From UHGV virus genome UHGV-0216076: DNA of 16,618 nt. One strand, written 5' to 3'. A model generated the notes under the pieces. The model was not told the DNA's origin and ran no database searches. It was given only the letters and a program-made list of their open reading frames with translations. The position numbers and the translations under genes are program-made. Source of the stretch: a virus. Position 1 is the stretch's first letter; the number at the start of each line of letters is the position of its first letter. Shown in pieces: positions 11,322-11,572 of the stretch.

Positions 11322-11531
11322 ATAAATCACTCTCTTACTGTAGGGGTAAGAGGATTTTACTATTTTTCTCGCTGTAGGGGTACACGAGAACCACCGAGCC
11401 TGATGTGGTTAAAAGACAGGCATACTAATAAACACTGCACTGTGTATTCATTCCAACGAGTGAATACACGGAGCAATGTCGCTCGTAACTAAACAGGAGC
11501 CGACTTGTTCTGATTATTGGAAATCTTCTTT

Positions 11532-11559
11532 GCCCTCCAATGTGAGGGCAGTTTTTTTT
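11532..11559 (+). terminator. Strong intrinsic terminator immediately upstream of the acidic-protein gene
   Basis: Perfect 7-bp stem TGCCCTC/GAGGGCA with 6-nt loop followed by G plus T8. Confidence 0.65.
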
Positions 11560-11572
11560 GACGGAGTAAACG

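Follow-up and report, generated by a model that had tools for sequence, protein, structure and literature searches.

We analyzed a 16,618-nt stretch of viral DNA (the window, UHGV virus genome UHGV-0216076) that holds the immunity and early region of a lambdoid phage, in which PL transcribes the plus strand. Between positions 10500-12100 the window is 99.6% identical to coliphage HK446. Genes follow one another in the order N (plus strand), a gene for a 164-aa protein (minus strand), the 250-bp spacer studied here, a gene for an acidic 82-aa protein (plus strand), cIII and kil (Table 1). The two genes next to the spacer are AT-rich, as a first-pass annotation of the sequence had described them, with GC fractions of 0.396 for the 164-aa gene and 0.345 for the 82-aa gene against 0.472 for the window as a whole. 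The N gene shares 96.7% nucleotide identity with lambda N, and exact lambda-type boxB sequences (GCCCTGAAGAAGGGC) mark nutL and nutR. What defines an N-antiterminated PL operon is hence found here: a lambda-type N, and a nutL that lies upstream of the terminator in the spacer and on the same strand.

Table 1. Positions and strands of the features discussed in the text, numbered along the window.
Feature	Position	Strand	Remarks
nutR boxB	8992-9006	-	exact lambda-type
nutL boxB	10228-10242	+	exact lambda-type
N gene	10511-10834	+	
164-aa gene, PHROG 1244 (unknown function)	10827-11321	-	C-terminal CxxC...CxxC; occupies the sieB position of lambda/P22
Hairpin P1, CTCTTAC / GTAAGAG	11332-11352	+	loop is part of the proximal repeat; 5' arm complements the SD region of the mRNA
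Proximal repeat copy	11338-11348	-	reads TACCCCTACAG on the minus strand; +1 to +10 of the predicted mRNA
Predicted transcription start, 164-aa gene	A at 11347	-	by alignment to P22
Predicted -10, TAAAAT	11354-11359	-	ends 6 nt before the predicted start; covered by the P22 promoter annotation
Hairpin P2, TTCTCG / CGAGAA	11366-11390	+	closes the loop CTGTAGGGGTACA; 97.8% of cells paired, G.U changes on the plus strand
Distal repeat copy	11372-11382	-	overlaps the predicted -35 position (TACCCC, a poor -35); loop of P2 in the plus-strand RNA
31-nt element, CCACCGAGCCTGATGTGGTTAAAAGACAGGC	11391-11421	+	3' domain of P22 sas, one base apart; unique in the window
14-bp hairpin with 4-nt loop	11440-11471	+	core is the palindrome; minimum-energy fold; last pair 11471 with 11440
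PreS (LPR1) homologue, 89 nt	11471-11559	+	85/89 identical to lambda, 2 gap positions
Intrinsic terminator, tL2a homologue and PreS 3' end	11530-11559	+	stem TTGCCCTC/GAGGGCAG, 8 pairs (5 G-C), 6-nt loop, T8 at 11552-11559
SD GGAG (11563-11566) and ATG (at 11573), acidic gene	11563-11575	+	from the sequence
82-aa acidic gene, PHROG 14587 'anti-restriction protein'	11573-11821	+	end-to-end match; sits in the place of lambda ea10

The proteins encoded on either side gave few clues. Neither Pfam nor PADLOC assigned a function to the 164-aa or the 82-aa protein, and no DNA-binding domain was seen in either. Although it occupies the sieB position, the 164-aa protein does not match SieB (PF14163); the P22-type cargo and one other cargo of related loci do. 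The position of the 164-aa gene and its promoter suggest a prophage-expressed exclusion gene. Just after the acidic gene, 11821-11881 (plus strand) is 88.7% identical to the end of lambda ea10 and the spacer before cIII. This block has terminator-like hairpins at 11820-11837 (minus strand) and 11853-11872 (plus strand) and could be a further member of the tL2 cluster.

A sensitive comparison with lambda resolved the spacer into two blocks. Block 1 (11337-11422) matches lambda 34396-34481, immediately upstream of sieB, at 87%, and block 2 (11427-11557) matches lambda 33925-34055, between the ral stop codon and ea10, at 97.7%. The genes that part the two blocks in lambda, ral and orf28, are missing from this phage. 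Similarity to lambda stops at the T-run of the terminator (11557/11558). The same fusion of blocks is present in VT1-Sakai. With at least 80% query coverage, the fused spacer occurs in 530 complete E. coli genomes, and parts of it are found in 2243 of 5426 such genomes, unannotated every time. Rfam returned zero matches for the whole window at gathering thresholds and chance-level matches only (E ≥ 0.29) for 11200-11700 at permissive E-values; the lambda GenBank records J02459 and V00638 annotate no terminator or promoter features in the corresponding region. As judged by homology, the spacer is a sieB promoter/sas cassette joined to a PreS/tL2a block, both already described in P22 and lambda.

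The first-pass annotation had singled out three elements of the spacer, an 11-bp direct repeat, a 9-bp palindrome and an intrinsic terminator. None of the three is peculiar to this phage. Two conserved lambdoid blocks lie end to end here, and the spacer is largely ordinary, being a fusion of two known phage regulatory modules. That account had lacked both this mosaic of two widespread lambdoid blocks and the identity of the terminator with the 80 nt before it, which together are PreS. In what follows, sequence homology, positions, helix covariation and strand bias come from our own analysis; that sas exists, where transcription starts, what PreS does and what tL2a is are taken from the P22 and lambda literature.

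Predicted promoter and direct repeat upstream of the 164-aa gene

The direct repeat CTGTAGGGGTA is exact at both of the places where the first-pass annotation had put it, with 34 nt from start to start, and it lengthens to 16 nt if two mismatches are allowed. Such a repeat is rare by chance: an 11-nt direct repeat at a distance of 12-99 appeared in 8 of 2000 shuffles of the spacer. At up to one mismatch, the 11-mer has only these two matches in the 16.6-kb window (0.13 expected), so the search for it elsewhere in the genome that had been proposed with the repeat turned up, within the window, nothing beyond the spacer. We also considered whether the CTGT...ACAG-like repeat could be read as a LexA/CI operator. 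This reading was rejected: a correctly spaced inverted partner is lacking, and neither OL nor OR contains the motif.

The position of the two copies can be read from phage P22. In its RefSeq record (NC_002371.2), the sieB promoter is annotated over the first copy and the hexamer, and the 'sieB RNA start site' is the A that precedes the second CCCCTACAG. The window aligns base for base with this promoter/start region, and its putative -10 and start A match the annotated P22 positions. By this alignment, the repeats are parts of a known promoter rather than an operator array ahead of one. In the minus-strand sense, the conserved cassette runs GCCTGTCTTTTAACCACATCAGGCTCGGTGG, TTCTCG, TGTA CCCCTACAG, CGAGAA, ~6 nt, a hexamer resembling a -10, 7 nt, A CCCCTACAG, a leader with the SD, and ATG. 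The order of N, opposed gene and cassette is common to the window, lambda, P22 and VT1-Sakai. In lambda, the two copies and their spacing are the same as here, and the 25 nt in between differ. Relatives of the same class (class A, below) have a -10-like hexamer (TATAAT, TAAAAT, TAAACT or TAATAT) at the matching place between the copies.

Several properties of this promoter could be explained by a protein. The first-pass annotation had placed the 164-aa gene under a repeat-binding factor; in that case the 11-mers would be DNA sites for a repressor or a class II activator, flanking the -10 at -34 to -25 and +1 to +10. The poor -35 (TACCCC) is typical of activator-dependent promoters, the copies lie ~3.2 helical turns apart, and both are conserved in most cassettes of the sample described below. 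A motif that is found nowhere else in the window, OL and OR included, is not what such a factor would lead one to expect, nor do the flanking proteins possess a DNA-binding domain.

Classes, cargo and RNA structure of the sas-type cassette

In P22, the sieB promoter is overlapped by an antisense RNA. RNA-seq detects P22A-sas as a species of 127 nt that starts opposite the first sieB codons, runs through both repeat copies and ends ~19 nt beyond the 31-nt element (PMC13397905). A second paper, with reference to Ranade & Poteete 1993, describes sas as an antisense regulator by which translation inside sieB is switched (PMC12197685). Positions 11365-11422 of the window and the 3' part of P22A-sas differ by one base, and both repeat copies align. 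No obvious promoter for a sas-like RNA was seen in this phage. In P22, sas reportedly arises by processing of the PL transcript.

How far such cassettes vary was surveyed with the 31-nt element alone, independently of the repeat. The element, GCCTGTCTTTT[CA]ACCACnTCAGGCTCGGTGG, heads three classes of cassette in several hundred lambdoid phage contigs. Class A, to which the window, lambda and P22 belong, has two copies of CCCCTACAG; both are exact in 130 of 154 class A cassettes of an anchor-based sample for which the repeat was not used in collection, and the remainder mostly have a one-base change in one copy. Class B, first met in a Klebsiella phage record, has the layout of class A, with both copies reading CCCCAACAAC at a spacing of 33 rather than 34. 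Thus both copies switch together between classes A and B, while the 24-25 nt between them diverge freely; behind this concerted change stand essentially one major event (class A vs. class B) and a few minor ones. The P2 stems of class B differ from that of class A and vary among themselves, yet they stay complementary (ATCCT/AGGAT, TCTGG/CCAGA, ATTCT/AGAAT and CCTTG/CAAGG). In class C, a TATnCT hexamer comes directly after the element; the repeat is absent and only one hairpin is present.

In 49 of 55 upstream flanks, class A cassettes are oriented antisense to their neighbors, as silencing driven by PL requires. Behind the cassettes stand more than 30 unrelated families of small ORFs, only two of which are SieB-like. 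The 164-aa protein groups with a family whose members (32 sampled) follow class A as well as class B cassettes; its relatives in viral contigs are almost all identical copies.

A few variants deserve mention on their own. The class C element is followed by TGG-TATnCT, which is extended -10-like and lies so close that a TTCACC/TTAACC -35 may come from the element itself. In one variant of class A (loci L483, L484, L491, L494 and L496), the second copy gives way to ACCCCCTTATTTTGTCAGGGGG, a different hairpin; the promoter half is thus retained, and the region around the mRNA start has been swapped. Many class B and class C cassettes have directly upstream of them a stem of ~20 bp (for example CACAACTGGAAGCGCACTCC ... 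GGAGTGCGCTTCCATGTTGTG, with a loop of ~40 nt; L323, L341, L354, L409 and others, ~100 nt upstream) that is absent from this window. A search of genome contigs for the double-repeat pattern gave two relevant loci only (L226 and L237). The motif CCCCTACAG also occurs within short tandem or interspersed repeats of environmental MAGs (loci L125-L244), often as ...GCCCCTACAG preceding a hairpin, in Acidobacteriota, Cyanobacteriota, Chloroflexota and others; these repeats are unrelated to the phage cassette.

The variation between cassettes allowed the predicted RNA structure to be examined by covariation. We used an ordinary MAFFT alignment of 30 distinct cassettes from viral contigs and scored P2 together with two interleaved helices of the 31-nt element, CCAC/GTGG and GCCTG/CAGGC. 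Across these 30 cassettes, 97.3% of cells were paired, and compensatory (two-sided) changes occurred in five pairs. None of 500 shuffles reached any of these measures, and slid controls were 30-51% paired. Each of the interleaved helices has compensatory changes of its own; in the structural model they would form either a pseudoknot or alternative hairpins. The stems of P1 in relatives, by comparison, are in differing registers.

The pairs that are not Watson-Crick indicate which strand folds. Cells that pair only as G.U numbered 10 on the PL-sense strand vs. 3 on the other strand (A.C), and all 3 came from one misaligned row. This bias shows that the structure belongs to the plus-strand, sas-like RNA, and it agrees with the location of P2 and the 31-nt element, upstream of where the mRNA starts. 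The bias is clear in class A only; class B has 2 G.U vs. 2 A.C.

These results weigh against DNA sites for a protein. The distal copy forms the loop of a hairpin that covaries and whose G.U changes fall on one strand, a signature of RNA and not of DNA, and the proximal copy coincides with the predicted start of the mRNA. Moreover, the motif is constant in front of more than 30 unrelated neighbor families, which argues that no cassette-specific protein is encoded alongside it. The repeat-binding factor of the first-pass annotation is accordingly not borne out: we regard a DNA-binding protein at the repeats as unlikely, and as less likely than a constraint on RNA-RNA pairing.

The repeat might also have no function of its own, as a by-product of what the promoter needs or as what is left of a short duplication spread along with the cassette, the -10, the start and the antisense overlap being sufficient. 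Some cassettes tolerate a single-base change in one copy, and class C, with the same 31-nt element, works with a single hairpin and no repeat. What makes us consider this rather improbable, though a little less so than the protein sites, is that classes A and B differ at several positions of the motif and yet the copies agree within each class at equal spacing, together with the rarity of an 11-nt repeat in shuffled spacers. Copies that change together while the intervening sequence drifts are most economically read as a constraint on RNA-RNA pairing.

PreS, its upstream hairpin and the tL2a terminator

In lambda, LPR1, now renamed PreS, is an Hfq-dependent sRNA encoded between ral and ea10, with tL2a as its 3' end, a termination site of the early-left operon whose name follows earlier work on that operon. 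It is seen as bands of ~88 and ~68 nt in the lytic cycle only, activates translation of the host dnaN gene and supports phage replication (Silverman et al., bioRxiv 10.1101/2024.10.31.621285). Because the primers used for cloning and in vitro transcription of PreS begin at GAGCAATGTCGCTCGTAACT (bioRxiv 10.1101/2024.10.31.621285), PreS +1 corresponds to 11471 in the window. The first 69 nt of the homologue are the same as in lambda, including the seed around UUGUUCUGAUUAUUGG; the M1 mutation falls there, as we located from the sequences of primers P838/P839. Differences from lambda are confined to the terminator loop, where one base is changed, and the U-tract, which is T8 in the window and T6 in lambda. 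As in lambda, a GC-rich terminator hairpin followed by poly-U forms the 3' end, within the PL operon and downstream of N. The neighbors, in contrast, are different: a sas-type cassette lies upstream (lambda: ral) and the 82-aa acidic gene downstream (lambda: ea10).

This homology identifies the terminator in the spacer as lambda tL2a, the terminator of PreS. The first-pass annotation had reported a strong terminator with a 7-bp GC stem and T8 only 13 nt before the SD of the acidic gene. Its site and its T8 are as described, and the stem has 8 pairs with 5 G-C. The 13 nt, however, is the distance from the T-run to the ATG at 11573, with just 3 nt separating the T-run from the SD. In the HK97 record, the hairpin and T-run of block 2 are annotated as a 'putative terminator'. 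Folding of block 2 on the plus strand is far more stable than that of shuffles (z = -5.6). Among the 329 phage records that carry block 2, 327 have it at 95% identity or more, with different genes downstream; such uniformity may be due to recent spread and not to constraint.

Upstream of PreS is the palindrome, GTGTATTCA-N10-TGAATACAC, which is exact at 11442-11469 and is followed by no U-tract on either strand, just as the first-pass annotation had noted. A perfect 9-bp inverted repeat was found in 26 of 2000 shuffles of the spacer, and a search for the palindrome elsewhere, also proposed there, showed it to be unique in the window. Its arms extend to 22 nt at 82% complementarity, and in the minimum-energy fold it makes up the core of a hairpin with 14 bp, the last paired base of which (11471) is PreS +1. 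It had been suggested that the palindrome was a protein-binding site or an RNA structure rather than a terminator. The 14-bp stem favors RNA structure, again as opposed to a terminator, and disfavors protein binding.

The form of the palindrome, a perfect 9-bp inverted repeat with a 10-bp center immediately upstream of PreS +1, would also suit a protein-binding site or a part of a dedicated PreS promoter. We consider this very unlikely, more so than protein sites at the direct repeat, given that no -35/-10 pair resembling sigma-70 sites was found there, that PreS is seen with PL active (lytic growth) and not in lysogens, and that complementarity runs past the core to a 14-bp stem ending at PreS +1, in a block that folds with the z-score given above. 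A promoter of its own for PreS was likewise rejected, the promoter scan having found no sigma-70-like site upstream and PreS having been reported in the lytic cycle only. From the same two observations we infer that PreS is most likely cut from the PL transcript, and the hairpin at the palindrome probably defines or protects the processing site.

Proposed workings of the two modules

Taken together, the comparisons make it quite probable that the spacer consists of two lambdoid modules placed head to tail, that is, the lambda layout minus ral and orf28, and that these modules work as they do in P22 and lambda. A dedicated control region had been suggested by the first-pass annotation, and the homologies point to one that acts on both strands, with a sieB-type promoter on the minus strand and a sas-like RNA on the plus strand. 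That the workings are the same in this phage, and the roles given below to the loop copy and above to the palindrome, are what we infer from these likenesses.

On the minus strand of module 1 (~11322-11422), a promoter that fires in the prophage would start transcription at 11347, give a 26-nt leader and drive the 164-aa gene. On the plus strand, transcription from PL would yield the equivalent of sas, composed of P1, P2 and the 31-nt 3' domain. This antisense RNA would pair with the 5' leader and the ribosome-binding site of the 164-aa mRNA, and the gene would be shut down during the phage's own lytic growth. Since the cargo is not SieB, the 'translational switch' of P22 may reduce to simple silencing here.

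The parallel with P22 sieB/sas is close. In both phages, the cassette lies between an N-type gene and the rest of the early-left operon, faces against PL and stands upstream of the opposed gene, and the 31-nt element, the P2 hairpin, the two copies of CCCCTACAG 34 nt apart, the -10 and the start base are aligned. They are unlike in cargo, which is the 164-aa protein and not SieB; in the leader and P1 stem, which in the window are specific to the 164-aa cargo; and in the block upstream of the cassette, which is PreS in the window and ral in P22.

This arrangement offers a reason for the direct repeat. The antisense RNA carries the complement of the first ten mRNA bases in duplicate, once at the true complementary position and once in the loop of P2, and the repeat would exist for this reason. 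P1 of the plus-strand RNA shows the proximal copy in its loop and holds the anti-SD stretch paired. The copy in the P2 loop may allow rapid recognition of the mRNA's 5' end, with a predicted duplex of -20.8 kcal/mol between the two. Because pairing through the P2 loop is limited to ~11 bp, however, its benefit is not obvious. In the IS10 RNA-OUT/RNA-IN system, the antisense RNA makes its initial contact through a loop, at the 5' end of its target. We draw on this system as a working analogy only, for a loop complementary to the extreme 5' end of an mRNA as the proposed nucleation site; there is no sequence relationship, and in contrast to IS10 the copy in the P2 loop of the window lies outside the continuous complementarity.

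Module 2 (11427-11559) would give PreS from the PL transcript. There tL2a would end PreS, supply the U-tail for Hfq binding and stop unmodified polymerase 13 nt before the ATG of the acidic gene, whereas polymerase modified by N would pass tL2a and proceed to the acidic gene, cIII and kil. The first-pass annotation had proposed that the acidic gene is expressed mainly when N antitermination reads through from PL. With a lambda-type N, an exact nutL boxB upstream and a terminator homologous to tL2a, this part of its account agrees with the sequence, and dependence on N for expression of the acidic gene as well as cIII and kil is well supported by homology.

More tentatively, the sas-type cassette could be a portable unit of promoter and self-silencing antisense RNA, with the twin motif as its key device and the 31-nt element as a pseudoknot; we hold this to be possible, not probable. 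Such a unit would serve many prophage-expressed cargo genes in lambdoid phages, candidate genes for exclusion or defense. Two hairpin loops of its antisense RNA would present sequence complementary to the first ten mRNA bases, with the P2 copy recognizing the mRNA 5' end, and the CCAC/GTGG and GCCTG/CAGGC pseudoknot would stabilize the 3' end of the antisense RNA. A role as a recognition loop would explain the joint switch from CCCCTACAG to CCCCAACAAC between classes. The literature that we covered appears to hold no description of the twin loop-displayed motif and its concerted change, of the interleaved helices or of the breadth of cargo. These three points are leads, and not findings that concern this window alone.

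The elements themselves are known, the sieB promoter and sas from P22 and tL2a and PreS from lambda, and the locus is a further member of this group with a cargo other than SieB. For annotation, the likely consequence is that the stretch left unannotated in 2243 of 5426 E. coli genomes carries a prophage promoter, a sas-type antisense RNA and PreS. Biologically, the P22 sieB/sas circuit is extended to non-SieB cargo, which is of modest value in itself. It is suggested, but not proven, that many prophage genes follow one rule, being on in the lysogen and silenced by read-through from PL in the lytic phase, and the twin motif offers a simple entry to how an antisense RNA finds its target.
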